Counted from the first letter of the stretch, positions 10,345 to 36,722 are shown. The stretch: DNA of 64,000 nucleotides from Bacillota bacterium (GCA_023411215.1 JAEYOY010000038.1:1-64000), one strand, 5' to 3'. The notes: generated by a model not told the origin, from the letters alone. Translations and numbers: made by a program.

Positions 10345-10424
10345 TATATCCTCCTTAAATATATTTAAAAACGGCAGGTGGTCGGAATGACACCCACCGA
10401 ATACCGATTGAAGATGAGATAAAG

Positions 10425-13196: not shown

Positions 13197-13224
13197 AAAA
13201 AGGCTTGCATCTTAGCAAGCCTTT
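13197..13224 (-). terminator. hairpin terminator
   Basis: aaaggcttgcatcttagcaagccttt. The minus strand is followed by a U-rich tract. It sits just 3' of the 13237..13473 gene. Confidence 0.5.
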
Positions 13225-13236
13225 CAAATTTATATC

Positions 13237-13473: not shown

Positions 13474-13724
13474 AGCATTCTCTCCTTTTCCTTTTTTCTA
13501 ATCCTTACTGATCAGGTTAATTATAGCAGATATTCCATAAAGAATCCATCCTTCCTTATTGTCCATAACGAGACGTCAATACGAAACTATATCCGGTATC
13601 CGATCGATTATTTACTGTCTCTGCTCTTAAATATATGTTGTAACCTTTCTTGTATGCGAGGCGTTAATGTGGTAAACTTTTTATTGATATATATTTCATA
13701 TCAAAAACCAATCAGGAGGAGAAT

Positions 13725-14837
13725 ATGCAGAAAAGAGCCTTTGGTAATACGGGACTACATACTTCCATTTTAGGCTTCGGCGGATTTCATTTATTAGAGA
13801 TCCCGGTGGCAGAAGCTAATTATCTCTTGAACCGTTATCTTGATGCCGGCGGTAACTATATCGAAACGGCAGCAAGCTACGGCAACGGGGAATCTGAGAG
13901 AAAGATCGGTCTATGTGTGGCTGACAGGAGAAATGAATATATCCTGGCTACGAAGACTGGAGAACGTTCGAAAGAAGGGGCCCTTTCCTCTTTGGAGCGT
14001 AGTCTTCATAACTTGAGAACAGACTATGTTGACCTTCTTATCATGCATGCGGTCGGAACTATGGAAGAGTTGGAACAGATATTGGCACCCGGCGGTGCAC
14101 TGGAAGGTGTGGAAGAAGCTCGCAGGGAGGGTAAAGTTCGCCATATCGGGATATCGATGCACGGACAGCCGGATGTACTGCTTCGCGCCTTGAAGGAATA
14201 TCCCTTTGAGGCTGTGATGACTACAATCAACTACTATGATCATTTTAATTTTCCAGAGATTCAACAGGAACTGGTACCTCTAGCCGAGGAAAAAGGGGCT
14301 GCCGTTATCCTAATGAAGCCAGTAGCAGACGGATTATTATGGCGATCCTCTGAAATCGCATTCAAGTATGCCTTCAGCCAACCGGTTTCTATCGTTGTTG
14401 CAGGAATTAATAACCGCGAAATACTAGAGGCGGATTTGAATTATGCCAAGAATTTCAATCCCATCACTGTCTCCAGAACGGAGCAATTATATACAGATGC
14501 GCCGGAACTCGGTAATTATGTATGCAGGCAATGTGGAAAATGTCTTCCATGTCCTGAGGGGATTCCGATACAGCAGATCTTTCTCTATGAAGGCTATTAT
14601 GATCGTCAGATGGCGGACGGTATTGTTACTAACGCTTCTGACTATGCCCTAAAGGAGCGCCTGCGTTTCTGGTTCGGAAATAATGCTATGGCGAGAAGAA
14701 GGTACGACGAGCTTGAAGTGAAGGCCGACCAATGTAATTCCTGTGGAGAATGCATGCCAAAGTGCCCATATGGAATTGATATCATACGTAAGCTATCCAT
14801 CTGTGATTATAAATTAGCCGGGAAAGATATTTATTAG
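13725..14837 (+). CDS. aldo/keto reductase fused to a C-terminal 4Fe-4S ferredoxin-like domain
   Basis: AKR N-terminus (GNTGLHTSILGFGG) and two Cys clusters (CRQCGKCLPCP, CNSCGECMPKCP). Confidence 0.8.
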   Translation: MQKRAFGNTGLHTSILGFGGFHLLEIPVAEANYLLNRYLDAGGNYIETAASYGNGESERKIGLCVADRRNEYILATKTGERSKEGALSSLERSLHNLRTDYVDLLIMHAVGTMEELEQILAPGGALEGVEEARREGKVRHIGISMHGQPDVLLRALKEYPFEAVMTTINYYDHFNFPEIQQELVPLAEEKGAAVILMKPVADGLLWRSSEIAFKYAFSQPVSIVVAGINNREILEADLNYAKNFNPITVSRTEQLYTDAPELGNYVCRQCGKCLPCPEGIPIQQIFLYEGYYDRQMADGIVTNASDYALKERLRFWFGNNAMARRRYDELEVKADQCNSCGECMPKCPYGIDIIRKLSICDYKLAGKDIY

Positions 14838-20983: not shown

Positions 20984-23623
20984 CTATGCCTTCTGTAGCT
21001 TTCGTTGTATTGCTTTCACAATCTCTACAATCGGAATAACACTGACAGCTAACAGCATTGCGATTCCATATTCCTCTAAGCTGATATGCTCAAATTCGAA
21101 GATGTTACTGAGGAAAGGAATATATATTACCGCCGTGGTCAGAATCAAGCTCATGGCAGCGGCTCCGATCAGTACCACATTCTGAGTATTCATACGAAAA
21201 ATTGATCCACGCTGACTTCTCATATTAAAACTATGGAATATCTCAGCCATACTCATAGTTAAAAAGGCCATCGTCATACCATCTGGACTGTTTACAAATT
21301 CCCATCTACCGGATTCAATATAATGACCGAGTAAATAAGCCAATAAGGTTACGACTGTTACCATTGCCCCCTGATACGCAACATCAATTCCGACACCACC
21401 GGAGAAAATCCCATCCTTAGAGGAGCGAGGCTTACGCTGCATCAGATCCTTCTCACCCTGCTCCATACCAAGTGCCAATGCCGGGAAGCAGTCTGTGATC
21501 AGGTTAATCCATAAGATATGCACGGGTTTCATGATAGTAAAGCCCAACAAGGTAGCAGTAAAGATGGATAATACCTCACTTAAGTTGGAGGATAAGAGGA
21601 ACTGTATCGCTTTACGGATATTGTCGTAAATTCGTCGTCCTTCTCCTACAGCTGATACAATGGTAGCAAAATTATCGTCGGCCAGTACCATGTCTGCAAC
21701 ATTCTTTGTTACGTCAGTACCTGTGATACCCATACCGACACCGATATCAGCACTCTTGATGGAAGGTGCATCATTTACTCCATCACCGGTCATAGCGGTG
21801 ATCATACCCTTCTTCTTCCAGGCTGTTACGATACGTACTTTATGCTCCGGTTGAACACGGGCATAGACGCCATAATTCTCGATGGTAGCCTGAAGCTCTT
21901 CGTCAGAGATCTCATTCAGCTGTGCTCCAGTTATGGCTTGCATCGGATCTTGAATAATACCAATCTGTGTTGCAATTGCAATGGCCGTATCTCTATGATC
22001 TCCCGTAATCATAACAGGACGGATACCTGCACTGCGACATTCCTTTATCGCTTCGATAACCTCTGGACGTACCGGATCAATCATACCGGTTAAACCGATG
22101 AATATAAGTTCCTTCTCCAAGAACTCAGGAGTGTACTCCGTCGGTGCTGTCTCATAGGTACGGTAGGCTGCTGCCAGGACGCGAAGTGCTTTGTCTGCCA
22201 TTCGTTTGTTTTCTTTTAATATCTCCTGACGCTTCTTCTCTGTCATAGGAAGGACTGTACCATTCTCTATGTAGAAAGTACATACGCGGAGTACTTCATC
22301 GGGAGCACCCTTTGTAAATTGTACAATACCTGAATTGTCATGTACGGTAGACATCATCTTTCGAACAGAATCAAAGGGAGCCTCTCCGATACGAGGAAAT
22401 ACTTTCTTCAATTCCGGCTTCAAGAGCGACAGCGTAGCCGCATAATTAACCAAAGCACATTCGGTGGGTTCACCGATTGCAGATCCATTCTCCAGCTCAG
22501 CATCACAACAGAGTGCCATTGCTCTACCAAGCAATTCCTCATCAGAGGTAAAATGATCAACTACAGTCATCTTATTCTGTGTCAGAGTTCCGGTCTTATC
22601 ACTACAGATAATCTGGGTACAGCCTAAGGTCTCAACTGCTGTTAATCGGCGAATTACTGCATTACGCTTACTCATATTCGTAACACCGATGGATAGAACG
22701 ATAGTTACAACAGCTGCCAGACCCTCAGGAATAGCGGCTACCGCTAGACTTACTGCCACCATGAAGGTATCAAGGACAACTGTTCCGTTCAAATCACCGG
22801 ATCGGAGCAGGCTGAATGCAAAGATGAATACACAGATACCAATTACAAGAACGGTAAGAATCTTACTTAATTGGTTTAATTTAATTTGAAGAGGAGTCTC
22901 GCCTTCTTCTGTTTTCGTGATGGCATCTGCAATCTTTCCCATCTCAGTGTCCATGCCGGTAGCGACAACAACAGCGCGCCCACGTCCATATACCACTGTA
23001 CTTCCCATGTAAGCCATGTTCTTCCGATCACCCAGGGGTATCTCCTTCTCTTCCTTTTTCAGAGATAGGATATCAATGATTTTATTTACAGGAACGGATT
23101 CACCGGTTAACGCAGCTTCTTCGATCTTCAAGCTGGCGCTTTCTAAGATTCTGCAATCAGCTGGAACAGAATCTCCTGCTTCCAGAAGAACCATATCACC
23201 AACAACCAGTTCCTCACTTTTTACACTTACAATAGTCCCGTCGCGAAGCACCTTACTCGTAGCTGCTGCCATCTCCTGTAGGGCTTCTATTGCCTTCTCA
23301 GCTTTATTTTCCTGATATACACCAAGCACGGCATTAATGATTACTACAATCAAAATGATGAAAACATCCGCAATAGACTCTCCGGCATAGATACTGGTTG
23401 CACCCGATATTGCTGCTGCCACGAGCAGTATTATAATCATAGGATCGGTAAGCTGGGATAAAAATCGTTTAAGCAGGCCATCCTTCTTACCCTCTACCAG
23501 TTTGTTCTTACCATTCTTCTCCAATCTTTCTTTGGCCTCAGAGGCGGTAAGCCCCTCTGCTTTACTTCCTACTACTTTTAACACATTTTCTTCTTGCTCA
23601 AGATAAAACTTCATTCGCGACAA
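20984..23623 (-). CDS. P-type cation-transporting ATPase (P2-type, Ca2+/Mn2+-ATPase family)
   Basis: DKTGTLT phosphorylation motif (CSDKTGTLTQN), TGDGVNDAPS hinge motif, 10 TM helices. The likely true start is the ATG 3 codons into the ORF, with an aaggaaggga RBS. Confidence 0.9.
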   Translation of the reverse strand: MSRMKFYLEQEENVLKVVGSKAEGLTASEAKERLEKNGKNKLVEGKKDGLLKRFLSQLTDPMIIILLVAAAISGATSIYAGESIADVFIILIVVIINAVLGVYQENKAEKAIEALQEMAAATSKVLRDGTIVSVKSEELVVGDMVLLEAGDSVPADCRILESASLKIEEAALTGESVPVNKIIDILSLKKEEKEIPLGDRKNMAYMGSTVVYGRGRAVVVATGMDTEMGKIADAITKTEEGETPLQIKLNQLSKILTVLVIGICVFIFAFSLLRSGDLNGTVVLDTFMVAVSLAVAAIPEGLAAVVTIVLSIGVTNMSKRNAVIRRLTAVETLGCTQIICSDKTGTLTQNKMTVVDHFTSDEELLGRAMALCCDAELENGSAIGEPTECALVNYAATLSLLKPELKKVFPRIGEAPFDSVRKMMSTVHDNSGIVQFTKGAPDEVLRVCTFYIENGTVLPMTEKKRQEILKENKRMADKALRVLAAAYRTYETAPTEYTPEFLEKELIFIGLTGMIDPVRPEVIEAIKECRSAGIRPVMITGDHRDTAIAIATQIGIIQDPMQAITGAQLNEISDEELQATIENYGVYARVQPEHKVRIVTAWKKKGMITAMTGDGVNDAPSIKSADIGVGMGITGTDVTKNVADMVLADDNFATIVSAVGEGRRIYDNIRKAIQFLLSSNLSEVLSIFTATLLGFTIMKPVHILWINLITDCFPALALGMEQGEKDLMQRKPRSSKDGIFSGGVGIDVAYQGAMVTVVTLLAYLLGHYIESGRWEFVNSPDGMTMAFLTMSMAEIFHSFNMRSQRGSIFRMNTQNVVLIGAAAMSLILTTAVIYIPFLSNIFEFEHISLEEYGIAMLLAVSVIPIVEIVKAIQRKLQKA

Positions 23624-23806
23624 GTCCCTTCCTTTTCATTGTTAGTAGAAGCACTGTGTTCGAACCGATTCATGTCCTAGAATCATGTATCAGTATACCG
23701 ACAGTTTCGTACCATAGTAGATTGCACAGCAAGCTATTCCTTGCCACACGGTGAGTCATCTCAAAGTGAACTTCGTTCATTTGCCTGGAGGCGTAATTCT
23801 TTTGAA

Positions 23807-23950
23807 ACAAAAAAGACTCAAGTAAATCCTATTCAAATTGAATAAGAAATACATGAGTCTTGTTCTTTCCGGATAAGCCAGACAGTTACGTCTTGTTGTT
23901 GACTTAGCCACGCAATATGGTGCGCGAACTACTCCCCCACGGTTCATAAA
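23807..23950 (-). ncRNA. putative yybP-ykoY (Mn2+) riboswitch with terminator expression platform
   Basis: Minus-strand ...ccgugGGGGAGUAGuucgcgcaccauauugcguggcuaagucaacaaCAAGACg... carries the hallmark GGGGAGUAG and CAAGAC elements. It is followed by the hairpin caagacucaug...cuugagucuu plus a U6 run, ~190 nt upstream of the ATPase start. Confidence 0.5.
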
Positions 23951-24132
23951 CATTTTATGCTTTTCTAGATGATCACATCTTTATCTTCTACAGTGCTTTT
24001 AATAATAGCACAATTAAGAAGAATAATCAATGGGAATTTGCTGGGAGTGTTTTTCGCTGTAACATTCTTGGCTCGACTACTTACAGCAATCCCTGTAATA
24101 GGATACCCTTTTGTTGAAATAACTTCATATCC

Positions 24133-25170
24133 TTAAAAACAACGTTGGTTCTTCTCCTTCGGGCAGACTTCACCTTTACTGCATTGATAACATACCTCAT
24201 TATCCAGTGATTTATCGTCAAAAAAGCTCCGACAGTTCTGTAATGTAGTCTCTGCAATATTGATCAAGGCTTCTTTTGTTAAGAATGCTTGATGTGAGGT
24301 TACTATTACATTCGGCATGGAAATAATTCGGGCTAATATATCATCTCTAACAATCGTATAGGACATGTCCTCATAAAAGAACTCTGTTTCCTCCTCATAC
24401 ACATCCAGACAAGCTCCTCCAACCTTCTCGTCCATAAGGGCCTCCAGCAGCTCTTCTGTATTAATCAACGCTCCTCTGGAGGTATTTACGATATAGACAC
24501 CCTTCTTCATCATTTGAAGCTTCTCCTTATTAATAAGATGAAAGGAATCCTTGGTTAAAGGGCAATGTAAGGAGATAATGTCCGATTCCCTGCACAGCTC
24601 CTCCAAGCTTACATATTGGATATCCGCATCCTTAATTGGATACGGATCATAAGCAATTAAATTCATTCCAAAGCCCTTACAGATATCCACAAAGATGCGT
24701 CCAATCTTGCCGGTACCGATTACACCCATGGTCTTTCCATGAAGATCAAACCCTGTCAGGCCATTTAAGCTGAAATTAAAATCCCTTGTTCTTATATATG
24801 CCCGGTGGATCTTACGATTGAGGGTAAGCAGCAGAGCGATTGCATGCTCCGCTACTGCATACGGAGAATAGGCCGGAACACGTACCACATGAAGCTTCCC
24901 ATATGCTGCCTTGAAATCCACGTTATTATAACCGGCACAACGCATGGCGATCAGCTTCACTCCATTCTCATATAGAATACGAATGGTTTCTTCATCAATG
25001 GTATCGTTGACAAATGCAACCACAGCCTCATATCCTTTAGCCATAAGGGCAGTTCTGGGACCAAGCTTAGGTTCAAAATATTCTATTTCGATCTTATATT
25101 GTTCCTTCAACTGGTCAAAGTAAACCTTATCATAGGGCTTTGTATCAAAAAAGCATATTCGGTTCATCAA
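24133..25170 (-). CDS. D-isomer-specific 2-hydroxyacid dehydrogenase (D-lactate dehydrogenase-like)
   Basis: NAD-binding GxGxxG (GVIGTGKIG) and the catalytic Arg/Glu/His triad region. The C-terminus has an extra Cys-rich tail. Confidence 0.8.
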   Translation of the reverse strand: MMNRICFFDTKPYDKVYFDQLKEQYKIEIEYFEPKLGPRTALMAKGYEAVVAFVNDTIDEETIRILYENGVKLIAMRCAGYNNVDFKAAYGKLHVVRVPAYSPYAVAEHAIALLLTLNRKIHRAYIRTRDFNFSLNGLTGFDLHGKTMGVIGTGKIGRIFVDICKGFGMNLIAYDPYPIKDADIQYVSLEELCRESDIISLHCPLTKDSFHLINKEKLQMMKKGVYIVNTSRGALINTEELLEALMDEKVGGACLDVYEEETEFFYEDMSYTIVRDDILARIISMPNVIVTSHQAFLTKEALINIAETTLQNCRSFFDDKSLDNEVCYQCSKGEVCPKEKNQRCF

Positions 25171-25325
25171 AAACTCCTTTCTTTATACCGTCTCAACCGC
25201 CTTTGCTACTCAACTTCTTAGGTATTTACTGTACTAATGACTAATATCATCTTTTTTATTGTATTTATACCTTTCAAATAGAGAAAAGAGCTTTACAACA
25301 TCGTCTTATTGCGTGTAATTAAGCA

Positions 25326-25622
25326 TCACTCTGATCGGTTACTTTTTATGATGTCATAGCCTAAAAGCTGTATTAACTTTAGCGCTTCCATCGAGGTTCT
25401 ACGGTCAAGCTCCTTCTCAGCTTCGGGTAGCTCATCATAGGATACTAAATTCGGATGCCGTTTTAAGCGGTCATTTCTTTTAGGGCCATAACTCCATCCA
25501 TTCTTCAATCTCTCTTCTGCCCAATTTTCATGGGTATTCTTTGCCAGTGTCTCTGCTATTTTTAATAGGTTATGATCTATTGCAACCTTGCTTGTATCGA
25601 TTGGATTTGGAATATATTTCAT
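25326..25622 (-). CDS. standalone RyR (ryanodine-receptor) domain protein
   Basis: 98 aa. HENWAEERLKNGWSYGPKRNDRLKRHPNLVSYDELPEAEKELDRRT closely matches the bacterial RyR-domain consensus (NWA...GW.YG...D...HP.LVPYEELPE.EKE.DR). Confidence 0.7.
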   Translation of the reverse strand: MKYIPNPIDTSKVAIDHNLLKIAETLAKNTHENWAEERLKNGWSYGPKRNDRLKRHPNLVSYDELPEAEKELDRRTSMEALKLIQLLGYDIIKSNRSE

Positions 25623-25635
25623 AGGTTAACCTCTT

Positions 25636-27468
25636 TTATAAATCACTTTTTGTTATACCATAACCTGAGGAAGATAAAATCAATCCAAGATTCTGTATCA
25701 GGAACTGGTCTGCTTTTTTATAATCTTTATTGAATACAGAACTTACATGATCAAGCTCATCCCATTCAACCAAACAACTATGTAATTTTAGGACTTCATC
25801 CTTGTTTTTTTCCTTCCCTTGAATATCAGTCATGGTTCTCCATCCATTTACAAAATGGTATGCATTCCATCTCATATGCTCTCCCTTTGATAACTGATCA
25901 AAGATAACATTATCTTTCAAAAGATTTTCATAGATTGTCGTTTTAGATCCTTTTTCATAACTGAGTCCAACGGAATTTAGCTTGGACTGGAAATGTAAAG
26001 CCAACGCTCTATTTGACTGCTTTTCAAAAAGGCTGATCTCCTCCCAAGTCCTAGTACTTTTATATACCGAATTATAAAAATCATGACATTGTTTCGCTAG
26101 ATGATCCAACTCTTCATTTATAATATTATTCTCTGTAAACAAATTATTTGATGACCCAAACCATATAACGTTACTAAGCAAGGTTGTTTTAAATAGTACT
26201 TTATATTTCTCATAATCTTTCACATATGCACATATCCTGGCTTTTGCCTTACTATGAATACATAGCCGGCTAACCTCGGATGCAGTCTCTACATCATCAT
26301 TAGCAATTATGATACAATTCAGATCAGGGAGATACCCCTTAAGCTTAATATAATATTGTTCTGTATCAAGCTTTGCATCAACAAACTCAAATGATGCGCA
26401 CTTCTCAACTTCCGGATTTTTTTGAAAAAAGGAAGCGGTTTTATCCCTGATCTCTTGTTCAACCAGAACTAACTTTAATTTAATGCCATCACATTGACCC
26501 AAAATGATAATATTTCTATATAGATCTTCACATATCTCTGAAAAACCGATGATGCATACCGTTAGTACCTCCTTCTTATCAAGTGTACTAACAAGCGTAA
26601 ATTGATCAAACAGCTGTCGGGAGATCAGATTATTCAAATCTATGATATGAATATCCAGTTGTGAAAAATCATCCCTAGAAAATACATCCTCACAAATATT
26701 ATGATCGGTGAAAACATACAGACTAACATCCTTATTCTTTTTTTTATTCTTTTTGTAACTTTCAGCATATTGATCAGTAAAAGTTATATTATCATAAATA
26801 TCTTCATTGATTGCAAAAATAAACGTCTTGTATTTTACAAATCTTAAACAAATGTTAATGATATCGTCAAGACTATATATCATGTATATAATATGTCCAT
26901 ATTTTGAAGCTTCTATTTCAAGCCTTATACTCTCATCCGAGTCACTTTTATTATCAACACTAAGGATTATGATGCTGTCTTTATTTTGCTTTTTAATATC
27001 ATTTGCTAGAGCTAAACTGTTTTTATTCAGCGCTGTAAAAATGTATACTTTCTTATTCCGAGTAAAACACCGGATAAACTTCAACTGAATCTTGCTCATT
27101 ACCCGATAACCTAACAGGGATAATATGATCATTCCGGTTACCAGCAGGGAAAAGGTCATGATAAGACCAAAAAAAATATTATACAGAGGCATGTTAGTAA
27201 CATTTGTTTCAAAAGAGGAAATATCATTTTCTAATACAAACATTCTTCCCGTACTGAAAATTGCCATTAATCCAGATGATATATAATCAAGAGGGCCCTG
27301 GCTTTTTGTGAGATATCCAATGGTATAGATACATATACCCAATATAATAAATGCAGATAGTATTTTTAATCGATGCTTTGCAAACCAGGTCTGATACCGA
27401 GATATTATAAATACTCCAAAAAATATTAATAGAATATCAAAAATGATAATTATGATTTGAACTAGCAT
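25636..27468 (-). CDS. membrane protein with degenerate RCK/TrkA-like middle region and C-terminal RyR domain
   Basis: 610 aa, 4 N-terminal TM helices. The C-terminal ~90 aa (EHMRWNAYHFVNGW...LHSCLVEWDELDHV) is RyR-like. The gene is very AT-rich. Confidence 0.55.
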   Translation of the reverse strand: MLVQIIIIIFDILLIFFGVFIISRYQTWFAKHRLKILSAFIILGICIYTIGYLTKSQGPLDYISSGLMAIFSTGRMFVLENDISSFETNVTNMPLYNIFFGLIMTFSLLVTGMIILSLLGYRVMSKIQLKFIRCFTRNKKVYIFTALNKNSLALANDIKKQNKDSIIILSVDNKSDSDESIRLEIEASKYGHIIYMIYSLDDIINICLRFVKYKTFIFAINEDIYDNITFTDQYAESYKKNKKKNKDVSLYVFTDHNICEDVFSRDDFSQLDIHIIDLNNLISRQLFDQFTLVSTLDKKEVLTVCIIGFSEICEDLYRNIIILGQCDGIKLKLVLVEQEIRDKTASFFQKNPEVEKCASFEFVDAKLDTEQYYIKLKGYLPDLNCIIIANDDVETASEVSRLCIHSKAKARICAYVKDYEKYKVLFKTTLLSNVIWFGSSNNLFTENNIINEELDHLAKQCHDFYNSVYKSTRTWEEISLFEKQSNRALALHFQSKLNSVGLSYEKGSKTTIYENLLKDNVIFDQLSKGEHMRWNAYHFVNGWRTMTDIQGKEKNKDEVLKLHSCLVEWDELDHVSSVFNKDYKKADQFLIQNLGLILSSSGYGITKSDL

Positions 27469-27610
27469 AATTTTCTCCTTCGATTAATCATTTAATTGCT
27501 AACAAAACCATCATAATTTATGTCAAATTATAAATAAAATCTTCTGGTACTTTATACAATGGAATTTGAAATAATTCATTACCACATTCAAGCGAGAATA
27601 TTTATTAACG

Positions 27611-28132
27611 CTATTGCTGTTTAGCTCCGCATCTGGAACAGAAAACTGCATCGACTGTTATCTGATGACCACAGGCTGTACAGAAAGCACCGGCAGTGGT
27701 TGTCGAAGTTTTATAACTGCTATATCCATTCGCTTCGAGGGTATGTACCGCTTCTTCGACCACGCTTATTGCCTCATCATCCAGTTTGGATTGTTTCACT
27801 AGGCCTGATATCTGAGTAAGCAACACGGGCCACGCAATAAATAAGGATATTGCTGAAGGGATCAACTGCTGTCCAAAGATTCCTACCTTGGCACTTACTG
27901 ATATTCCCCCCATTGCTTCCTTTATTTCGATATTTAAAGCAGTTTTCATTCCAAGAATTGACTTAAAGATTCCGCCCTTGCTAATACTGATAAACTGCCC
28001 AAACGCATTCCCTTCCACATGAACAGTATATCCGTTATTTTCAAAATGAGTTTTTGCTATCTTCGCAACTTCATCCAAACTTTTATAATGAGTTGTTATA
28101 AATTTATCCGATTTAAATGTAGCCATATTCAT
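27611..28132 (-). CDS. hypothetical protein with C-terminal zinc ribbon
   Basis: 173 aa. One hydrophobic helix. C-terminal CTACG...CSRCG zinc-ribbon motif. Confidence 0.5.
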   Translation of the reverse strand: MNMATFKSDKFITTHYKSLDEVAKIAKTHFENNGYTVHVEGNAFGQFISISKGGIFKSILGMKTALNIEIKEAMGGISVSAKVGIFGQQLIPSAISLFIAWPVLLTQISGLVKQSKLDDEAISVVEEAVHTLEANGYSSYKTSTTTAGAFCTACGHQITVDAVFCSRCGAKQQ

Positions 28133-28140
28133 ATCCTCCC

Positions 28141-28386
28141 CTATATACGCTTACTATTCAGTGTGTATAGTACTGCCATTTCACTGAATGCATCAACGAA
28201 CAATTTTTTATCATCATCACTTACCTGTTGATTAATCTGCTTCAGAAGGTTTAGTACTACGTTTGACTGCTCTATGATTTCCTCGTCCGTTATTCGTGCA
28301 TCCTCCATTATTTTTTTGTAGCTTGGCATCTCCATCACTATTTCATCCAAACATAAAAATCCATTTTTATCAAATAAGCTCAACAT
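28141..28386 (-). CDS. small hypothetical protein
   Basis: ORF 28141..28416. Its start is probably the internal Met (MLSLFDK), which avoids overlap with the upstream M48 gene. Confidence 0.3.
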   Translation of the reverse strand: MLSLFDKNGFLCLDEIVMEMPSYKKIMEDARITDEEIIEQSNVVLNLLKQINQQVSDDDKKLFVDAFSEMAVLYTLNSKRI

Positions 28387-29279
28387 GTAAAGTCCTCCTC
28401 TATTTTCTTTCCGCAATGTTTACAGAATACCCAGTCTTTCTCAACCATTCCACCACAACTGCGGCATTCATTATCATTTTGCTTCATATAATCCATAATT
28501 TTCTCAAAATCGCTACTCTCACACCATTGCTTAATCTCGGCAGCACGTACAGCAGTAAAGGGATGTGTCTGGTTCATCAATACCATAAACTGAAGAGTCT
28601 TGTTCCATAAGGAACTATCAATCAATTTTTGATATTCTTTTGCCTGTTCGATGTATAGCTTCTGATTCACCTTTGCCGTAATATTTTTACTTCCTCCAGA
28701 AAGGCGTGTCATAACCTCTATTACTGAGGAACAGCTCTGAAGATATACTGCAGCAGCCCGATCCGCGGAAAATTCACTGCATCTTTGCCAATGGCAAAAG
28801 GCTATCTTAAGAGGTAAAGAGATTGCATCTATTCCCAATAAATCTATCCCCTGGTTGATAATTATATCTGCCATAGAATGATACAGACAATGCCTGCATG
28901 CAATATGTCCACACTCATGAGCAAGTACTGCTTTCACTTCATCCTCTTCCATGATTTCAATCAATCCTGAAGTTACTGTTATGGAAATCATTGAATCACC
29001 GAAGGTATACGCATTTGGATAAGGATTCATTTCCAGATAAAACTCAGGTTCCGTAATGCCCAATACTTTACATATAGGTGGCAGCAGTTGGTATATTTCC
29101 GGTAACTGATCGGGTCCGAGCCTAATCTTACTTGACATATTAATCCCATGAATCATAGTTTCATTATAAATTTTCATAAAAGTTTTTAATACCAGTTGAA
29201 ATCCAGGTATCGCTTCTAGCGCCAGTAAAGTTTTCTTATCCTGTTCATGGTAATAGTTACTTGGGTTAATTACTTTCAT
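28380..29279 (-). CDS. M48-family zinc metallopeptidase with C-terminal zinc ribbon
   Basis: HEXXH motif (LAHECGHIACRH) in an M48/Ste24-like context. C-terminal CRSCG...CKHCG ribbon. Confidence 0.7.
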   Translation of the reverse strand: MKVINPSNYYHEQDKKTLLALEAIPGFQLVLKTFMKIYNETMIHGINMSSKIRLGPDQLPEIYQLLPPICKVLGITEPEFYLEMNPYPNAYTFGDSMISITVTSGLIEIMEEDEVKAVLAHECGHIACRHCLYHSMADIIINQGIDLLGIDAISLPLKIAFCHWQRCSEFSADRAAAVYLQSCSSVIEVMTRLSGGSKNITAKVNQKLYIEQAKEYQKLIDSSLWNKTLQFMVLMNQTHPFTAVRAAEIKQWCESSDFEKIMDYMKQNDNECRSCGGMVEKDWVFCKHCGKKIEEDFTC

Positions 29280-29871
29280 ATAAGCAATCTCCTTCCATTA
29301 ATACACAGATAAAGCCTACATCTCTTTGTCATATAGACTTAATTCACAGTGATACTTACCTTTTTTACTCATTTTTTTATGTAAGGATTTCCATTTGTCC
29401 AATCACATCTAGTTACATTATCACTGCCTTATTTGCATTCTAAATGTTCTAAATCATTTTAATTGACTTAGTGGCATAATTGTATTTTATTAGTTAATTT
29501 TACCATATTTCTTCATGACATGCATTACATTTTTAATTTCAAACCAATACATTTCATTCTTCTTTCATTCTTTTTAAACGTTCTAAAATAAGTTCTAGCA
29601 AATTCTCATATGCATATCTTATTAAGAAAGGCATGAAACGAACGACTATCTTGTCCAATAACATCTGACCAATTCAGGAACAGCCTCATCTAAGATACAT
29701 TTTTCCATTTGCTCTATCATCTAGCAGGAGCCCCTATAATATCATGCAAAGCCCGAATGATTATTAACAGTACCGTAAATTTGTATTGTTATATTCTGTT
29801 TAATTATGGTAAAATATACCTAGGTTTTATCCTAATAAATAGATTATCATTCTTAAAGTGGGGAGGAAAAT

Positions 29872-32800
29872 ATGATGCAAAATTCATTTGATACAACACC
29901 TGAAACAGAGGAAAAGTATACCTATTATGCCTTTATCAGCTATAAACATGAAGATGAAAAATGGGCCAGATGGATTCAGAATAAATTGGAGACCTACAAG
30001 TTGCCTACGGTTCTGCAAAAGGAAATTAGAGACCTCCCAAATCGCATCACTCCGATTTTTCGTGATAAGACGGATATCACCTCAGGCCCCTTAAAGAAGA
30101 CCCTTTCGAAGGAGCTACAGTCTTCCAGATTCCTAATAGTCATATGTTCTCCCAATGCAGCAAAATCAATTTATGTGGATTATGAGGTTGAGCAATTTAT
30201 CCGAATGGGAAGACAGGACAGAATCATTCCTCTGATCATCGACGGTGCTGTCAGAACCCAGAACCCTGAACAGGAATGCTTTGTTCCATCTCTTCTTGCA
30301 ATGGAGGAAACCATCCTTGGTGTAGATCTACCTACGCTTGGTAAGCACAAAGCTTTCCTGACAGTTATAGCCACGATGCTTGATATTAAGCTGGATACCC
30401 TAGTGAGGAGGGATCGGATCAGACAAAAGAAAAAAAACCTTCTGGCGACGGCAAGCATCACTATATTGCTGATACTTGCAGGCTTTACACTGGATTATTA
30501 CATCCCTAAGACCTATTATTATTCCGATTATGTACTGCAATGGGGAATACCAAAGGGTATATTCCGGCTTGACTATAGCTTCCTAGCCTTTGGTAAGAAT
30601 GAGCTGAAGGATAGAGACGATTTTTACGCTGTTACCATATCAAAATCCAATAAGACGATTACGCTGAAGCATATGAATTCCGCCATGGTTCCGGTTGACT
30701 ATCCAACCGAAACGGAGCAGAGTGACCGACCGGTTTTTGCAGAATATGATTATAAAGTTACGGATGGAATTAAGCAAGTTTCAGATGCAAAGTACTTCGA
30801 CAGATACGGGAATATTATACTTGTGCTGAAGTATTCGGACGACTCTACCATCGTTGATTTCACCAGCCCAGATGGATCCAACACCCCTGTTACCTTATCC
30901 GGAAGCTTGTTTTCAGAAAACGGTACAATGGATGTTAAAAATTTGGAAATAAAAAGCTCAATCACACGATACATATATCAATATGATGAAAACGGATACA
31001 TCAGTCTGGTTAAATTCATGCGAGATAACCGTGCCACATCCCCTACGCCGGATCAGAACGGAATCACGGGTTACATCTGTACGGTCGATCAATACGGCAG
31101 AGTAGTTACTAAGAGAATGAATTATGTATTTGATAATACCATCCATAATACTGTATTTGACAGAATCTATTACAATTACGCTTACCAATCTCCCAACCTT
31201 GTTAGTGTGGTATATACTGATGCCGAAGATAATTTGATATATAATGGTGATTTCTATGCAAAAAAAGAATTTTTCTATTATGATAATGGGAATATTAGTG
31301 ATATTTATTATTATGGGACAGATGGTGAAAAATGCACAGGCCCTTATGGTTATGCCCACGCCAGCATCATTTACGATAATAAAGGCTTTATACAGGAAGT
31401 TGATTACTATAACGAAAATAATTATCCGGTCATCACCGTATTCGGCTATGCGAAGGCGCAGCATGTACACGACAAGAAGGGCAATTTGACACAAGCTTCT
31501 GTATTCGATACCGATGGGAATCCAGTTGTGGCACTTCCTACTGATATATATCGGTATGTCAGCGGTTTTTCTACGATTCGTCGGGTTTATGATGAGAAAA
31601 ACATGCTCATTAGTGAAACCTATTACGATGAAAACGATGAACCCATGCTTTGTACTGGTGAATATGCAAGGCTCGATACCGCGTATCATAAAGGTCTTCT
31701 CAGTGAAGTAAGCTATTATGATGTTAACGGCGAACCAAAAACATGTAATATAGGCTTTGAAAAATTCACAAAGGAATATAATGAGTTCGACCTGGCGATC
31801 AACTGGCGATACTGCAATGCAGATGGGACCCTGTCGGAAACAACATGGGGATATTCCCGTATTGAGCTAGAGTATGATGAGAATAGAAATATAAAATCCT
31901 ATTCCTTTTATGATGAGAATGACCGACTCGTCATGACGGAAGATAACATTGCCCGCCAGGAACTAGTCTGGGATGACAGAGGACTGTTGTCTGAACAAAG
32001 TAATTATGATACGGTCGGTAACCTTGTTGTTTCAACCGCCGGATATGCCAAGAATGTTAAGGAATACAATGAAAGCGGTTTGTTGACCAAGGATATCTAC
32101 TATGATCAGAATGAGGAGCCGGTGTACGTTCCGGATCAAGGCTATGCAAGATATGAAGCAGCCTATGATGAATATGGTGACTGCACTTATAAGTCATATT
32201 ATGACGTTGATGGTCAGCTGGTTATGACCAATTATGGATATGCAGAATACAAAGCCTGGTATGACAGCAAAGCACAGAAGGTCGAGGAAGCCTATTACGA
32301 CGAAACAGGTAGTCTGGTCCTTCCAAATGGTTATGATTGGGCAAGACATACCATGGCATATACGGAAGAAGGATTACCAAAATGTGAAAGCTATTATGAT
32401 GCAGATAATCACCTGGTAATCAATTCTTACACCGGCTATGCAAAATGCTATGCAGAGTATGATGAGTGGAATAATATGCGTTCAAAAACCTTCTACGGTA
32501 CGGATGGTAAGGAGTTCATCTCACCGAATTTGGGGTTTGCTTCCGTTAAATATGTATACGAGAATAACTACCTGATCAGGACCAGCTATTATGATGAAAA
32601 AGGAGATCTGATTATTTCCCCAACCATTAACTATGCCGAGCAGATCCAGAAGCTGGATTCGAATGGAAAACTTCTTAGCAGCTGTACATATGACGATACA
32701 GGGAAGCCGATCCTTAATCTTTACGGTTATTCCAGCGTAACATGTACCTATAATCAAAAAGGGTTAGAGACAAATAGACAATACCTTGATGCCCAGGGCA

Positions 32801-33276
32801 AGCCGACGATTGCCCTGAATTATGGTTACGCAGAGATGGATATTCTTTATAATAAGGATGGTACATGGAAAAATGCCGTATTTTATGACCAGAGTGGCAA
32901 GGAAATTGATTCAAATCTGATTGTAACGAAATCCTTTGTATATATTTCTGAGGTTAAAGCACAGAGTGCCGGCTTAAAAGCCGGAGTACATATTAATGAT
33001 CTTATACTGCAGTACGGCGACTGGTGTTATTTCCCTGTGAATGAAGAAGATAGTATGTTTACCCTTCTTACAAATGAATTAGAAAGAGTAAAGGATTTAT
33101 CTAAAAAAGTTGTAATATATCGTCCGACGGACGCTTCCATCCAAACCTATCAATTTGATAGCGGGATGGTGGGACTACGAATTAACTCTGTAGATTTCAG
33201 CTTCCCGAGTCAGGAGGCTTATATGGAATACAGCACGGGACTGGAGTCGGCTTATCTTAGTAGCGGCTTAGAATAA
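29872..33276 (+). CDS. TIR-domain transmembrane protein with extracellular YD-like repeats and C-terminal PDZ-like domain
   Basis: N-terminal TIR_2-like motif (YYAFISYKHEDEKWARWIQNKLE...FLIVICSPN...DYEVEQF). One TM helix (LLATASITILLILAGFTLDYYI). About 20 tandem ~23-aa YD-like repeats (GYA...YDE.G.L.....YYD..G.PV). C-terminal GLKAGVHINDLILQYGDW PDZ-like segment. Confidence 0.6.
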   Translation: MMQNSFDTTPETEEKYTYYAFISYKHEDEKWARWIQNKLETYKLPTVLQKEIRDLPNRITPIFRDKTDITSGPLKKTLSKELQSSRFLIVICSPNAAKSIYVDYEVEQFIRMGRQDRIIPLIIDGAVRTQNPEQECFVPSLLAMEETILGVDLPTLGKHKAFLTVIATMLDIKLDTLVRRDRIRQKKKNLLATASITILLILAGFTLDYYIPKTYYYSDYVLQWGIPKGIFRLDYSFLAFGKNELKDRDDFYAVTISKSNKTITLKHMNSAMVPVDYPTETEQSDRPVFAEYDYKVTDGIKQVSDAKYFDRYGNIILVLKYSDDSTIVDFTSPDGSNTPVTLSGSLFSENGTMDVKNLEIKSSITRYIYQYDENGYISLVKFMRDNRATSPTPDQNGITGYICTVDQYGRVVTKRMNYVFDNTIHNTVFDRIYYNYAYQSPNLVSVVYTDAEDNLIYNGDFYAKKEFFYYDNGNISDIYYYGTDGEKCTGPYGYAHASIIYDNKGFIQEVDYYNENNYPVITVFGYAKAQHVHDKKGNLTQASVFDTDGNPVVALPTDIYRYVSGFSTIRRVYDEKNMLISETYYDENDEPMLCTGEYARLDTAYHKGLLSEVSYYDVNGEPKTCNIGFEKFTKEYNEFDLAINWRYCNADGTLSETTWGYSRIELEYDENRNIKSYSFYDENDRLVMTEDNIARQELVWDDRGLLSEQSNYDTVGNLVVSTAGYAKNVKEYNESGLLTKDIYYDQNEEPVYVPDQGYARYEAAYDEYGDCTYKSYYDVDGQLVMTNYGYAEYKAWYDSKAQKVEEAYYDETGSLVLPNGYDWARHTMAYTEEGLPKCESYYDADNHLVINSYTGYAKCYAEYDEWNNMRSKTFYGTDGKEFISPNLGFASVKYVYENNYLIRTSYYDEKGDLIISPTINYAEQIQKLDSNGKLLSSCTYDDTGKPILNLYGYSSVTCTYNQKGLETNRQYLDAQGKPTIALNYGYAEMDILYNKDGTWKNAVFYDQSGKEIDSNLIVTKSFVYISEVKAQSAGLKAGVHINDLILQYGDWCYFPVNEEDSMFTLLTNELERVKDLSKKVVIYRPTDASIQTYQFDSGMVGLRINSVDFSFPSQEAYMEYSTGLESAYLSSGLE

Positions 33277-33283
33277 CCTGCAC

Positions 33284-33307
33284 CTGAGGCGGGGTTGCCC
33301 GCCTCAG
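33284..33307. terminator. bidirectional hairpin between convergent TIR genes
   Basis: ctgaggcggggttgcccgcctcag (GC-rich 9-bp stem). No strong U-run on either side. Confidence 0.45.
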
Positions 33308-33382
33308 ATTTATGATAGATAATTGTACCTTCTGTGCTTTAAAACCTTCTTATAAAGTTCTCACAATAAAAGCTGCTACATT

Positions 33383-35137
33383 TTATTCCATTACCTCACA
33401 AAGATCATATAATAATACAAGACTATCACCAACCGGTATTTCACCTTCCGCAATATCAAATCCTGATCCATTATATCGAAGTACTTTTACTTTGCTATTT
33501 TCATTTTTTATTCTGGCAGTCACAATATCTTCCATGGTCTTTATTTTTTTGCCGTTCATTTCAATTAAGATATCACCAAGCAGATAGAAGCTGTTCTGTG
33601 GCTTATCCGGTTCATACCCACCGATTAAACATCCGTAGTCAATCCCTGTACTGTCAACTTGTCTAAAGAATGCCTCTGCAATTGGAATGAAAACATCTGC
33701 CTCATCCGATGTATCCTTCTCATGGAATATCTCAAGGCATTCAATACACATATCATACATCTTCAGGGTATTAAAGCGAAGCATCTTCCCCCATATTATG
33801 CCTACTTCATCCGTCTCTAATGGTTTAAATTTTTCCTTTGCTTCTTCCTTTGTCTTATTCAATTCTTCCGTGACTTCCTTTAGTTTATTTACCTTACCCT
33901 CCAGCTCATCGAGCTGTACATTATAATCCCCTATTATAGAAGCAATTTCAGTAATTATATTTTGATACTTCGTAAAATTTGCGTCTGATATCGCTTTTAT
34001 TTCTTCCTTATTCTTACTCCACGACTGCCCATTATAGATATCCGGTAGTATGGGGAGCAATTCTGCTTTAAAATCTTTCAGAGCATCTTCATCTACATCA
34101 ACCAGGATATCATTTATGCCATAAAAAATCAGGTCCTTATTAATATCCATAATCTGTTCATAATAATCTGACAATTGAGTCATCGATGTTTTGGATAATA
34201 CACTTTCACCGGAGGACATATATATCATGTAGTCAATATTATTGAGGAATTCATCGGTACAAGTGATTAGGAAGTCCCTTACAGCAATAATATCATCTTT
34301 TGCTAGAATGGTATTATCAAGCTTTGCCGATAAAGTATCATCCAGTGTGACATAATTATCCTTCGCCTTTGTGATTTTCTCCTTGTTCTTTCTTAAATCC
34401 GATTGAAGAGCAGTATAATTAATTTCAGTCGGATCTGTTAGATAGTATTGGAATGCAGTTATAGCAAGATCATATTCTGCGATTGCTATATTGGCATTTG
34501 TTAAGTTTGTTGAAATATAATATATTACTTCCTTTACGGTGTTCTTATCCGCTTTCGAATATGGAAACGATGCCTGTGTTGTTTGATAGAACTGATACCC
34601 TGTGAATATGACACCAAAAGTAACAAACAATGCAATAACCAAGGGTAAAACCTTTTTAATTAAGCTATTATGAGTGATTCTATGTACAATCCTAGGCTTT
34701 GTTTTTAAAAATTCTACCAACCGTTTTGCAAAAGCATCAAAAAATTCTGTAGATGCCTCTATTCCGCTTTGATACCGAAGCTGTTCCATATCCTCGGGTA
34801 GCTTATCAGGAAATTGAAAGCCTCTTAACAGGACCGGTACCACATTCTTCCTTTTCTGTAAAGCATAAGCTACTTCCAGTCTGACCCAGTCATTATCATT
34901 GCCACATCGCTCCAAACAATTCGGCGATAAAACGGAGATAAAATCCTCGCATTCATCGATTACTGAAAACAGCTTTGAGTTGAATTGCCCCGAGCGAAGC
35001 GATTCAACGTCAAAAAATACATTATATCCCAATTCGGTTAATTTATCATGAATTATTTTAGCTGTATACTCTCCGCCTTCACGCCGATAGCTTATAAAAA
35101 TATCATATTTCATAGTAACTATACCTCCCTGATACAA
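33383..35137 (-). CDS. TIR-domain transmembrane protein with extracellular coiled-coil region and C-terminal PDZ-like domain
   Basis: N-terminal TIR (KYDIFISYRREGGEYTAKIIHDKLTELGYNVFFD...DFISVLSPNCLERCGNDNDWVRLEVAYAL). TM helix (VLPLVIALFVTFGVIFTGYQFY). C-terminal GDILIEMNGKKIKTMEDIVTARIKNENSKVKVLRYNG PDZ-like. Confidence 0.6.
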   Translation of the reverse strand: MYQGGIVTMKYDIFISYRREGGEYTAKIIHDKLTELGYNVFFDVESLRSGQFNSKLFSVIDECEDFISVLSPNCLERCGNDNDWVRLEVAYALQKRKNVVPVLLRGFQFPDKLPEDMEQLRYQSGIEASTEFFDAFAKRLVEFLKTKPRIVHRITHNSLIKKVLPLVIALFVTFGVIFTGYQFYQTTQASFPYSKADKNTVKEVIYYISTNLTNANIAIAEYDLAITAFQYYLTDPTEINYTALQSDLRKNKEKITKAKDNYVTLDDTLSAKLDNTILAKDDIIAVRDFLITCTDEFLNNIDYMIYMSSGESVLSKTSMTQLSDYYEQIMDINKDLIFYGINDILVDVDEDALKDFKAELLPILPDIYNGQSWSKNKEEIKAISDANFTKYQNIITEIASIIGDYNVQLDELEGKVNKLKEVTEELNKTKEEAKEKFKPLETDEVGIIWGKMLRFNTLKMYDMCIECLEIFHEKDTSDEADVFIPIAEAFFRQVDSTGIDYGCLIGGYEPDKPQNSFYLLGDILIEMNGKKIKTMEDIVTARIKNENSKVKVLRYNGSGFDIAEGEIPVGDSLVLLYDLCEVME

Positions 35138-35402
35138 AAAACTTCATTTGGTAAAATATCACACTATTACCCTAATTATATCAATTAATGCACTTTATTT
35201 CCATATGCATTTTAAAATGGTCCCACAATGTTTTTACATATATTCACATTTAATAACGCGCGAGACTTGTTTTTCAATAGGATAATCCAACGAACTGTGC
35301 GAAGAAGTGTGGAAGTCAGTTCTACAGATACAAAAAAATGGGAAAGTCCCCAATATATGACTTTCCCATTTTTAAGCGTAAAACCCGGACTAGCTTCTTA
35401 GT

Positions 35403-36722
35403 TTAGTCGGGTACAAACATACTATAAATCGCCTTTGTTGCTTCTTCAAAATCCTCCTCAGCAACGCCTATAATAATATTCAACTCAGAGGAGCCCTGAT
35501 CAATCATCTTCACATTGACCTTAGCCTGAGCCAGAGCAGTAAATATCTTAGCAGCTGTACCTCTTGCCTTTCTCATACCTCTTCCTACAACAGCAATCAG
35601 TGCTAAATTATCCTCAATATCGATATTATCCGGATGTGTTCTTGCCGTAATCTCATCCAGAACAGATTTTTCTTTGCCACGAAATCCTTCTGTACTAACG
35701 ATAACACTTAATGTATCGATACCGGAGGGAATATGCTCGAAGCATAAGGCATTTTTCTCCAGAGCACGAAGTACATTTCTGCCAAAGCCGAGCTCGGAAT
35801 TCATCATATCCTTCTCAATATTAATAACAGAGAAGCCCTTCTTTCCGGCAATGCCGGTTACTGTATAGGGACTACTATCCACAGTCTGAGCAACAATCAT
35901 CGTACCGGGATCCTCCGGATGATTCGTATTCTTAATATTAATCGGAATTCCTACTGTACGCACCGGAAAGATAGCATCTTCATGAAGTACCGTTGCTCCC
36001 ATATAGGAAAGCTCACGAAGTTCACGATAAGTAATTGTAGTAATTGGCTTCGGATTCTTAACAATTCTGGGATCACAGATTAAAAAACCACTGACATCAG
36101 TCCAGTTCTCATAAATCTCAGCGTTCACAGCTCTAGCTACAATGGAACCGGTCACATCAGAGCCTCCACGTGAAAAGGTCTTAATCGTATCATTTGGCAT
36201 AGAACCGTAGAAGCCTGGTATTACTGCATTCTCCATCTGAGCAAGCTTCGGTTCAAGCTTTGAAATGGTTCTATCCAGGTCAAATTCACCGCTTTCGTTA
36301 AAGTATAGTAACCCCACGGTATCAAGGAACGGAAAATCAAGATACTTCGCAAGAAGCAGGCTGTTCAGATACTCTCCGCGGCTGGCTGCATAATCACGTC
36401 CTGCGCTATGCGCAAAAGCAGCTTTGATAAAGTTGAATTCCTCTTCTAACGAGATATCCAAGGATAAGTCCTGAATAATACTATTATAGCGCTCTTCAAT
36501 TGCAGAAAATTCCTTCTCAAAATTTTCCCCCTTCGATGCTTTATCATAGCAGCTATATAGCATGTCTGTAATCTTAATATCCTTATCATATCGTTTACCG
36601 GGAGCAGATGCTATAACAAAACGTCTGGTTTTGTCAGCACGGATAATATCCGCAACCTTTTTGAATTGGTTGGCATCAGCAAGTGAACTACCTCCGAATT
36701 TTACAACCTTTGTACCTTTCAT
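35403..36722 (-). CDS. lysC: aspartate kinase
   Basis: KFGGSS motif at the N-terminus, amino-acid kinase fold, and two C-terminal ACT domains. Confidence 0.9.
   Translation of the reverse strand: MKGTKVVKFGGSSLADANQFKKVADIIRADKTRRFVIASAPGKRYDKDIKITDMLYSCYDKASKGENFEKEFSAIEERYNSIIQDLSLDISLEEEFNFIKAAFAHSAGRDYAASRGEYLNSLLLAKYLDFPFLDTVGLLYFNESGEFDLDRTISKLEPKLAQMENAVIPGFYGSMPNDTIKTFSRGGSDVTGSIVARAVNAEIYENWTDVSGFLICDPRIVKNPKPITTITYRELRELSYMGATVLHEDAIFPVRTVGIPINIKNTNHPEDPGTMIVAQTVDSSPYTVTGIAGKKGFSVINIEKDMMNSELGFGRNVLRALEKNALCFEHIPSGIDTLSVIVSTEGFRGKEKSVLDEITARTHPDNIDIEDNLALIAVVGRGMRKARGTAAKIFTALAQAKVNVKMIDQGSSELNIIIGVAEEDFEEATKAIYSMFVPD

Follow-up and report, generated by a model that had tools for sequence, protein, structure and literature searches.

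We analysed a window of 64,000 nucleotides (nt) of DNA from a Bacillota bacterium (GCA_023411215.1 JAEYOY010000038.1:1-64000; all positions not assigned to another locus are counted from its first letter), and in particular a block of seven open reading frames (ORFs) at 25326-35137, located between an ldhA-like gene and lysC, as a first-pass annotation of this DNA had placed it. The block joins two genes for membrane-anchored TIR proteins with two for proteins carrying a ryanodine receptor (RyR) domain, one of which, TM610, is a predicted channel-like effector, and with a triad of genes headed by an M48 metallopeptidase. This TIR-RyR gene set is recurrent and previously undescribed and, as far as its sequence can tell, it is likely a new kind of Thoeris-type defence with a putative anti-phage function. 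The seven ORFs are the following:

25326..25622, minus strand: RyR98, a free single RyR repeat of 98 amino acids (aa) (Pfam RyR, 1e-32)
25636..27468, minus strand: TM610, predicted channel-like effector, 13 nt upstream of RyR98
27611..28132, minus strand: ZnR173 (Pfam Zn_Ribbon_1, 7e-7)
28141..28386, minus strand: sm81, an acidic helical protein of 81 aa, whose first 7 nt are shared with the end of M48
28380..29279, minus strand: M48 (HtpX-like) metallopeptidase, soluble, with a C-terminal zinc ribbon (Pfam PF01435, 9e-19)
29872..33276, plus strand: TIR1134 (Pfam TIR_2, 3e-14; ThsB_TIR, 7e-9; WG_beta_rep, 7e-4)
33383..35113, minus strand: TIR584, 576 aa from its ATG, with an alternative TTG at 35137

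Proteins encoded by the block

RyR98 scored 112.6 bits against Pfam PF02026, for which the gathering threshold is 27.4, and its best matches among PDB sequences were the R12 repeat of RyR1 (1e-53) and the B. thetaiotaomicron structures deposited as 'putative ryanodine receptor' (3NRT; 4e-28). Its ligand or catalytic residues are His31, Trp34, His56 and Asp73, with a spacing (3, 25, 17) identical to that of H75/W78/H100/D117 in the phage protein RyDEP. The same His/Trp/His/Asp set is kept in 44-52 of the 52 small RyR homologues from the fetched loci, and in 49-56 of the 56-57 TM610-type domains from the same loci. In TM610 itself, His531, Trp534, His563 and Asp587 align to the RyR98 set with two loop insertions. 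The first-pass annotation had counted two RyR genes, which holds for RyR98 by Pfam alone; TM610 fails at that level (14.4 bits, E = 0.047, below threshold), but its C-terminal domain was recovered by hhalign against the small RyR proteins with a probability of 96.7% (E = 4e-10).

TM610 is laid out as membrane helices (aa 1-135), a tandem RCK region (aa 140-440) and the C-terminal RyR domain (aa 450-610). An AlphaFold model built with 17 homologues (pLDDT 84.7, pTM 0.80) displayed membrane helices, two Rossmann-like domains at aa 140-440 and a helical C-terminal domain, with the tandem RCK (KTN) fold joined to the last membrane helix. When this model was searched with Foldseek, full-length chains of the GsuK channel ranked first, and the protein's closest counterparts were gating rings of ligand-gated channels; Pfam TrkA_N was not detected in it. 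Neither this channel-like nature nor a functional link between the TIR and RyR genes had been noticed in the first-pass annotation. An exhaustive HMMER search defined a TM610 family of 734 cluster representatives at E <= 1e-30, and nearly all of the ten representatives that were scanned lacked Pfam annotation. A word-indexed search returned 18 close homologues, none of them from Bacillus or Vibrio. In one relative, P0285 (749 aa), a TM610-type protein is fused to an extra canonical RyR domain (residues 673-748, 9.9e-26), which gives a tandem RyR arrangement like that of the animal R12 repeat.

Both large proteins at the other end of the block start with a TIR domain (TIR_2 matches of 3e-14 and 2.5e-14) and have one transmembrane (TM) helix predicted after it, in agreement with the two TIR-TM genes of the first-pass annotation. 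In TIR1134 the N-terminal TIR domain, with catalytic Glu105, is followed by a TM helix at aa 189-209, beyond which WG/YD-like repeats of about 33 aa make up an extracytoplasmic domain of some 900 aa. In the AF2 model of TIR584 (pLDDT 87.3), a SARM1-like TIR domain that retains the catalytic Glu leads through one TM helix into a long-helix ectodomain, and a small PDZ-like beta domain closes the C-terminus. Among homologues, 40 of 45 for TIR1134 and 42 of 47 for TIR584 retain the catalytic Glu; TIR584 has more than 561 homologues in all, at 34-80% identity along their whole length. Since a single hydrophobic helix follows the TIR domain and a basic stretch precedes that helix, the TIR domain is predicted to be cytoplasmic and the large C-terminal part to lie outside the membrane. 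Foldseek aligned the TIR domain of TIR584 (aa 1-140) with that of SARM1 at 36-39% identity (E = 4e-9). With TM-scores of 0.86-0.89, this domain stands unusually near SARM1 of animals and TIR-1 of C. elegans, and much nearer to them than to AbTir or the SPARTA TIRs.

A PDZ domain had been proposed for both TIR proteins. For TIR584 it found modest support in Pfam PDZ_6 (E = 0.11), in a Foldseek match to a site-2-protease PDZ (6icc_A, E = 5.5e-3) and in the presence of PF17820 in two members of the family; for TIR1134, Pfam, PDB sequences and hhalign against the TIR584 family gave none, and the assignment was dropped. A promoter-like site of TIR584's own lies at 35203-35175, and one structured element separates the two convergent TIR genes, likely a bidirectional terminator:

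33284..33307, no strand: GC-rich hairpin with a 10-bp stem

The M48 peptidase was claimed by the first-pass annotation together with two zinc-ribbon proteins, and both statements stand, as the peptidase and ZnR173 each carry such a ribbon. The peptidase reached 68.5 bits against PF01435 (threshold 20.3), its H121-E122-x-x-H125 motif and E169 are invariant in 26 sequences, no TM helix was predicted in it, and it has more than 3068 homologues. In ZnR173, a conserved N-terminal domain and a hydrophobic segment (aa ~88-112) precede the zinc ribbon, which is C-terminal and of the CxxC...CxxC form; the start of the protein is likely Met3, at 28126. The small ORF sm81 is called as a gene in an identical contig and is separated from ZnR173 by 8-14 nt. 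No informative Pfam or PDB match was obtained for sm81, nor were informative relatives found for it or for ZnR173, and searching the profiles of all three proteins against PDB sequences returned just a zinc ribbon, designed helical proteins and an HtpX fragment.

Two spacers mark off these genes:

27469..27610, minus strand: spacer of 142 nt (GC 0.24) between the M48 triad and the TM610-RyR98 pair
29280..29871, no strand: divergent intergenic region of 592 bp (GC 0.29) between the M48 operon and TIR1134

The shorter one divides two sub-operons, the triad and TM610-RyR98, and we infer that it may hold an internal promoter. The longer one presumably holds promoters for both directions, and no Rfam match at the E-value threshold was found in it.

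Recurrence of the gene set in other loci

Searches from three different genes of the block (TM610, M48 and TIR584) each reached loci in which TIR genes are combined with a small RyR gene, with unrelated flanks and a shuffled gene order; when TM610 or M48 served as the starting gene, the complete set was found. TM610 homologues in the linked loci share 26-69% identity, and unrelated flanks also surround the nearest homologues of TM610 and M48 (69-83% identity). The order is TM609-RyR98-M48-sm81-ZnR171-TIR1133 in L083/L084, RyR95-TM639-M48-sm81-ZnR177 followed by three TIR genes in L085, and RyR95-TM611-TIR883-M48-sm83-ZnR170, all on one strand, in L092, to which L090 is equivalent although frameshifted. 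L086 carries a TIR-ROK gene, TM617 and RyR92; L088 and L089 carry partial sets, and L087 has TM609 alone. Orthologues of TIR1134 adjoin the gene set in L083, L092, L094 and L169. The suggestion of the first-pass annotation that the block may be one multi-gene system is borne out by this co-occurrence of the same families in rearranged order.

A metagenome scan with M48 yielded 80 further loci, and an iterative census with hidden Markov models (HMMs) was carried out; the M48 loci were grouped into 53 clusters at 90% identity. ZnR173 is collinear with M48 in 42 of the 53 clusters, and sm81 was found in 35. Nineteen clusters are well flanked, their sequence extending for 5 kb or more to either side of the peptidase gene. 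Beside M48, nine of these hold the full set, two hold TIR, TM610 and the triad, one TIR and the triad, and one TM610 and the triad; four have sm81 and ZnR173 or ZnR173 only, with no TIR, RyR or TM610, and two have M48 alone. A TIR gene and TM610 are thus each present in 12 of the 19, and the M48 triad is a frequent partner of TIR/RyR/membrane-protein loci.

We considered whether TM610, RyR or TIR genes were hidden in the loci that had looked triad-only, and relaxed HMM thresholds gave nothing significant; one of them, L114, proved to have a SLOG-SLATT-like protein. The 587-596-aa proteins beside TIR584 homologues were likewise tried as TM610 relatives and turned out to be a separate SLOG/SLATT-like family. 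In this family the membrane proteins measure 587-610 aa, and Pfam matches, none of which reaches its threshold, liken their N-terminus to SLOG and their membrane part to SLATT/DUF4231. Its members occur near TIR584-like and small RyR genes in L173 (8073-9836), where a 587-aa protein accompanies RyR93 and TIR576, and in L174 (8189-9967), where a 592-aa protein accompanies a TIR-WD40 gene, TIR613 and RyR92; near the M48 triad they occur in L114 (7987-9819), L118, L109/L112 and L088 (3854-5644). Such proteins seem to serve as effector in place of TM610. Taken together, the loci reached from the three entry genes indicate that small RyR and TIR genes travel with a nucleotide-sensor membrane protein, either RCK-RyR or SLOG-SLATT-like.

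Some features of the related loci were recorded in passing. TIR paralogues stand in rows of up to five (L085, 13678-18656; L086, 2209-3735; L174, 4090-7290; L155, 11677-20897), with C-terminal sensor domains that comprise NADase-type discoidin glycan-binding domains (5e-29), YD repeats, ROK sugar-kinase-like domains and WD40. Directly downstream of TIR-ROK, TM617 and RyR92 in L086, a vWA/Tubulin_2 (1224 aa)/vWA cluster at 6753-14006 may be another conflict-type module. Loci L123-L147 represent the TIR-less variant considered below (for example L129, 8771-15471, with ZnR170); it is preceded by genes for a protein weakly resembling sigma-70 region 4 and for a C39-like peptidase, and followed by one for a WG_beta_rep protein (3e-28).

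The ldhA-lysC slot and the composition of the block

The block occupies most of a segment that is absent from the nearest relatives:

24133-25167, minus strand: ldhA-like D-2-hydroxyacid dehydrogenase gene, one flank of the block
25159..35395, no strand: variable segment of 10.2 kb between ldhA and lysC
35403-36722, minus strand: lysC, aspartokinase gene, the other flank

In a blastn comparison with L003, the nearest species-level relative (lysC 95% identical), DNA homology ends at window position 35396 and restarts at 25158. The SBP-lysC...ldhA-ATPase synteny is kept in L003, and 3.6 kb with two unrelated genes replaces the block. These genes (slot 12209-14437) code for a 447-aa protein with C-terminal tetratricopeptide repeats and for a 261-aa protein with no Pfam or PADLOC match. 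Since L003 holds other genes there, the slot looks like a hotspot of cargo exchange. In Anaerotaenia torta (L007, DSM 100431; 11317-11676), lysC directly adjoins the P-type ATPase gene. As ldhA itself is missing at this site in A. torta, the variable region is wider than the 10-kb block in that lineage. A lysC-anchored scan with one genome per species found island genes in none of 80 related lysC loci. An identical sequence is present on a 401-kb metagenome scaffold, and only four contigs have identical lysC and ldhA proteins, with the same neighbouring genes in all four. From L003, A. torta and the 80 lysC loci it follows that the block is strain- or species-specific cargo in a variable slot, and horizontally exchanged cargo is the best explanation for it. 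The alignment of flanks proposed by the first-pass annotation thus indicates an insertion, as L003 and A. torta lack the block while the flanks are syntenic, and conserved synteny of these genes in relatives with a composition normal for the genome was not encountered.

The block is therefore absent from close relatives at a conserved site, and its composition is deviant too. The sliding-window calculation gave a GC of 0.365 against 0.408 for the whole window, the lowest of all 10.2-kb windows (minimum of the non-overlapping ones, 0.398; mean, 0.420), and the island genes have lower GC (p = 0.0012) and lower GC at third codon positions (GC3; p = 0.0005) than the other 35 ORFs (Mann-Whitney). 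The sharp drop described in the first-pass annotation is accordingly real in rank but overstated in contrast, being moderate and uneven: it is carried mainly by TM610 (0.318) and TIR584 (0.357), with TIR1134 near normal (0.404). Two further statements did not survive. The excess of Asn, Lys and Ile in the island genes was not significant (p = 0.09), and the spacers of about 600 bp described as nearly all A/T came down to a single one, 29280-29871 (592 bp), whose GC of 0.29 is close to the window spacer mean of 0.33 and thus does not fit that description. The reported lack of an integrase or transposase was confirmed, and no tRNA, flanking direct repeat or att site was found at the block either; Rfam gave no match across the whole window at the gathering threshold.

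Two features border the block. At the island boundary, immediately after lysC, two perfectly complementary 15-nt arms enclose a 10-nt loop (35334-35373), and this inverted repeat probably serves lysC as terminator. The non-coding stretch 23802-24040, between ldhA and the P-type ATPase gene (20984-23623, minus strand), is 82-83% identical to L003 and A. torta, which exceeds the identity of the adjoining ATPase coding DNA for A. torta (77%) and is about equal to it for L003 (84%). It may be a conserved leader or terminator of the ATPase, and a hairpin of about 60 nt within it (23802-23869) draws generic hairpin matches alone in Rfam.

Interpretation and comparison with known systems

The text and searched supplement of a recent survey of TIR systems describe Thoeris as one or several TIR sensors (ThsB) with a signal-activated effector, membrane effectors included, and list 29 putative types, with types V-XI validated; among them, type III has several TIRs and a SLOG effector, type VII a SLATT effector and canonical cyclic ADP-ribose (cADPR), and type X an ion-channel effector, ThsK, whose signal is not known (Yirmiya et al., bioRxiv 2025, 10.64898/2025.12.03.692087). 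RyR, PF02026 and M48 are not mentioned in that text or in the searched supplement (10.64898/2025.12.03.692087). Phage proteins with PF02026 that neutralise Thoeris have been described in two 2026 preprints (PMC13232231; 10.64898/2026.06.04.730250). RyDEP hydrolyses 2'/3'cADPR via His75/Asp117 while Trp78 and His100 hold the ligand (PMC13232231), and RyR Tad gp68 sequesters gcADPR with a Kd of 43 nM via His129/Trp132, Lys147/His154 and Lys170/Asp171 (10.64898/2026.06.04.730250). Both leave the cellular role of RyR domains open (PMC13232231; 10.64898/2026.06.04.730250). Our literature search found no paper describing host RyR-domain effectors; a paper on the E. faecium TirE cluster was checked and is unrelated.

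On balance, and with considerable reserve, we favour the reading that the block is one Thoeris-like nucleotide-signalling system with a RyR-gated channel effector, carried on exchanged cargo. A surface cue would drive assembly of the single-pass proteins TIR1134 and TIR584, with the TIR domain in the cytoplasm and the variable domain outside, and the assembled TIRs would use NAD+ to make a messenger that derives from ADP-ribose and belongs to the cADPR family. This messenger would be read by the C-terminal RyR domain of TM610, whose tandem RCK ring would then gate the membrane domain, and the resulting ion flux or depolarisation might arrest the cell or alter its physiology. RyR98 could either pair with the RyR repeat of TM610 into a two-repeat, R12-like ligand module, or buffer or hydrolyse the messenger and in this way set a threshold. 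The M48/sm81/zinc-ribbon triad would be a proteolytic accessory module.

Several observations weigh against this proposal. The alignment of the TM610 family contains no recognisable K+ selectivity filter (no TVGYG-like motif), and the membrane part of TM610 is modelled at low confidence (pLDDT 52-71). M48 lacks TIR, RyR or TM610 genes in six of the 19 well-flanked clusters, and the proposal gives the triad no explained role. A human-gut variant that is very common, M48-sm81-ZnR-TM645, accounts for 25 of the 80 metagenome loci; TIR and small RyR genes are absent for 10 kb around it, and it still keeps His-Trp-His-Asp. Animal RyR R12 domains have ATP, ADP or ADP-ribose (ADPR) as ligand; as the TIR-less variant retains the residues, the ligand need not be TIR-made and could be any of these three. 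Anti-phage TIR systems do not usually sense outside the cell, and glycan- or sugar-type TIR sensor domains fit envelope or environment sensing as well as phage sensing. The flanks are mostly housekeeping or sugar-utilisation genes, and enrichment of known defence genes among the neighbours relative to the lysC control was not clear (115 system-locus neighbours against 115 control neighbours; generic matches similar, families matched 34 against 17). No PADLOC or NCBIfam Thoeris model reached its threshold on the island proteins: the matches were generic TIR ones, with PADLOC ThsB1 aligning to the TIR domain at just 1.2e-6 and NCBIfam ThcB4 scoring 39.4 bits where 220 are required, and neither resource matched TM610, RyR98 or the triad. 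Because no curated model matched, and in view of the other counterpoints, we filed the system as Thoeris-like in its working and as a member of no described type.

Part of this evidence would suit an envelope or ion-homeostasis module that is not anti-phage, in which the TIR ectodomains sense glycans, damage or neighbours, an NAD-derived messenger tunes the RCK/RyR cation channel and M48 serves membrane-protein quality control. The external sensor domains, the TIR paralogues with NADase-type discoidin (5e-29), YD repeats and ROK, the carbohydrate-utilisation or housekeeping flanks and the unclear defence-island enrichment all point that way, K+ flux is classically regulated by RCK rings, and no TM610 relatives were found in a scan of viral contigs. 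We nevertheless regard such a module as unlikely, since strain-specific cargo in a slot that holds other uncharacterised genes in a sister species, patchy distribution and copy-number-variable, fast-diversifying TIR paralogues are typical of conflict systems, and the bacterial TIR messenger systems characterised so far are all anti-phage.

The genes could also be independent modules gathered in one hotspot, namely a TIR/RyR/TM610 unit, a self-contained M48-sm81-ZnR173 module (which might be a toxin under protease control or serve in membrane stress) and TIR584 as a solitary NADase effector. M48 is indeed far more widespread than the rest (more than 3068 homologues) and, as noted, dispenses with it in six of 19 clusters; TIR584 homologues occur without the triad or TM610, TIR584 has a promoter-like site and a terminator of its own, and 142 nt separate the triad from TM610. 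What makes this arrangement improbable is that the triad stands beside TM610, and beside TIR genes, each in 12 of 19 clusters, far above chance for unrelated modules, that membership persists though gene order changes, that small RyR genes accompany TIR584-type genes, and that a SLOG-SLATT-like protein adjoins the triad in L114, L118, L109/L112 and L088. Finally, the block might be ancestral DNA that was lost in relatives, its low GC stemming from membrane-protein and repeat content, as the missing integrase, att repeats and tRNA and the near-genomic GC of TIR1134 would permit. We consider this very improbable, given two successive outgroups without the block, one of them with different cargo, none of 80 relatives with block genes, the closest TM610 and M48 homologues (69-83%) in unrelated flanks, and GC3 below that of the rest of the window.

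The locus and its many relatives put host RyR domains beside TIR enzymes, and TM610 combines one with a channel-like membrane protein in a single chain. If the favoured Thoeris-like reading is correct, the RyR domain gains a native receptor role, TIR signalling gains an effector class of RyR plus RCK as well as TIR sensors that face the cell exterior, and the long-debated link between cADPR and the ryanodine receptor becomes testable in a small bacterial system. The M48/small-protein/zinc-ribbon triad, thousands of whose homologues are found in gut Clostridia, is flagged as a partner of nucleotide-sensing membrane effectors. A bolder version, which we offer as speculative, would see here an outside-in pathway in the style of Toll-like receptors, from a repeat or PDZ-like receptor through a SARM1-like TIR and a cADPR-type messenger to an RCK channel opened by RyR, and so a possible prototype of the animal cADPR-RyR axis and source of the phage RyR anti-Thoeris sponges and glycosidases.

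With Thoeris the block shares TIR genes with intact catalytic Glu beside a membrane protein that has a putative binding domain for ADPR-derived nucleotides, variable TIR paralogues and, in related loci, the pairing of TIR584-like genes with SLOG-SLATT-like effectors. It differs in that the effector has for its sensor a RyR domain joined to a tandem RCK ring, RyR not being among the effector domains named in the text and searched supplement of the survey, in that the TIRs are single-pass proteins with large extracytoplasmic domains instead of small cytosolic ThsB, and in its extra conserved partners, the free RyR protein and the M48/sm81/zinc-ribbon triad. Type X in particular is a two-gene operon with a short cytosolic type-II-like ThsB, whereas the present block has seven genes and TIRs of 576 and 1134 aa with TM helices; the type X TIR sequences in the searched supplement of the survey are short and unrelated in architecture to those of the island.

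The M48 peptidase has in common with the HtpX/M48 membrane metalloproteases the HExxH...E active site and a PF01435 score above threshold. It departs from them by its lack of TM helices and its C-terminal zinc ribbon, it scores 56 bits against the HtpX NCBIfam equivalog (cut-off 341), and it is set apart by the 81-aa acidic protein and zinc-ribbon membrane protein encoded downstream. RyR98 resembles RyDEP and RyR Tad in PF02026, in the His-x-x-Trp...His...Asp pattern and in being a small single-repeat protein, likely dimeric; the island RyR proteins are instead host-encoded, sharing an operon with TIR genes and a membrane effector, and not phage-borne. As one RyR copy is fused to a channel-like protein, these domains are probably signal receptors or regulators and not immune-evasion factors.

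TM610 is 9-14% identical to the RCK/KTN channels and transporters (GsuK, MthK, TrkA/KtrA, CASTOR/DMI1, Slo), from which it differs by its conserved motifs G-x3-Y-x2-G-Y and FSxGR...ND in place of a TVGYG-type filter, and by its additional RyR domain. With animal ryanodine receptors the likeness consists of a RyR repeat attached to or beside a channel-type protein (RyR98 matches RyR1 R12 at 1e-53), Ca2+ conduction being no part of it; animal receptors have a 6-TM pore and a giant cytoplasmic shell, whereas here there is a single repeat per protein, an unrelated RCK ring and about three TM helices. The block also shares with the animal cADPR-RyR axis the SARM1-like TIR enzymes encoded alongside, the animal ones making cADPR, and the comparison suggests a bacterial analogue of cADPR-gated RyR channels.

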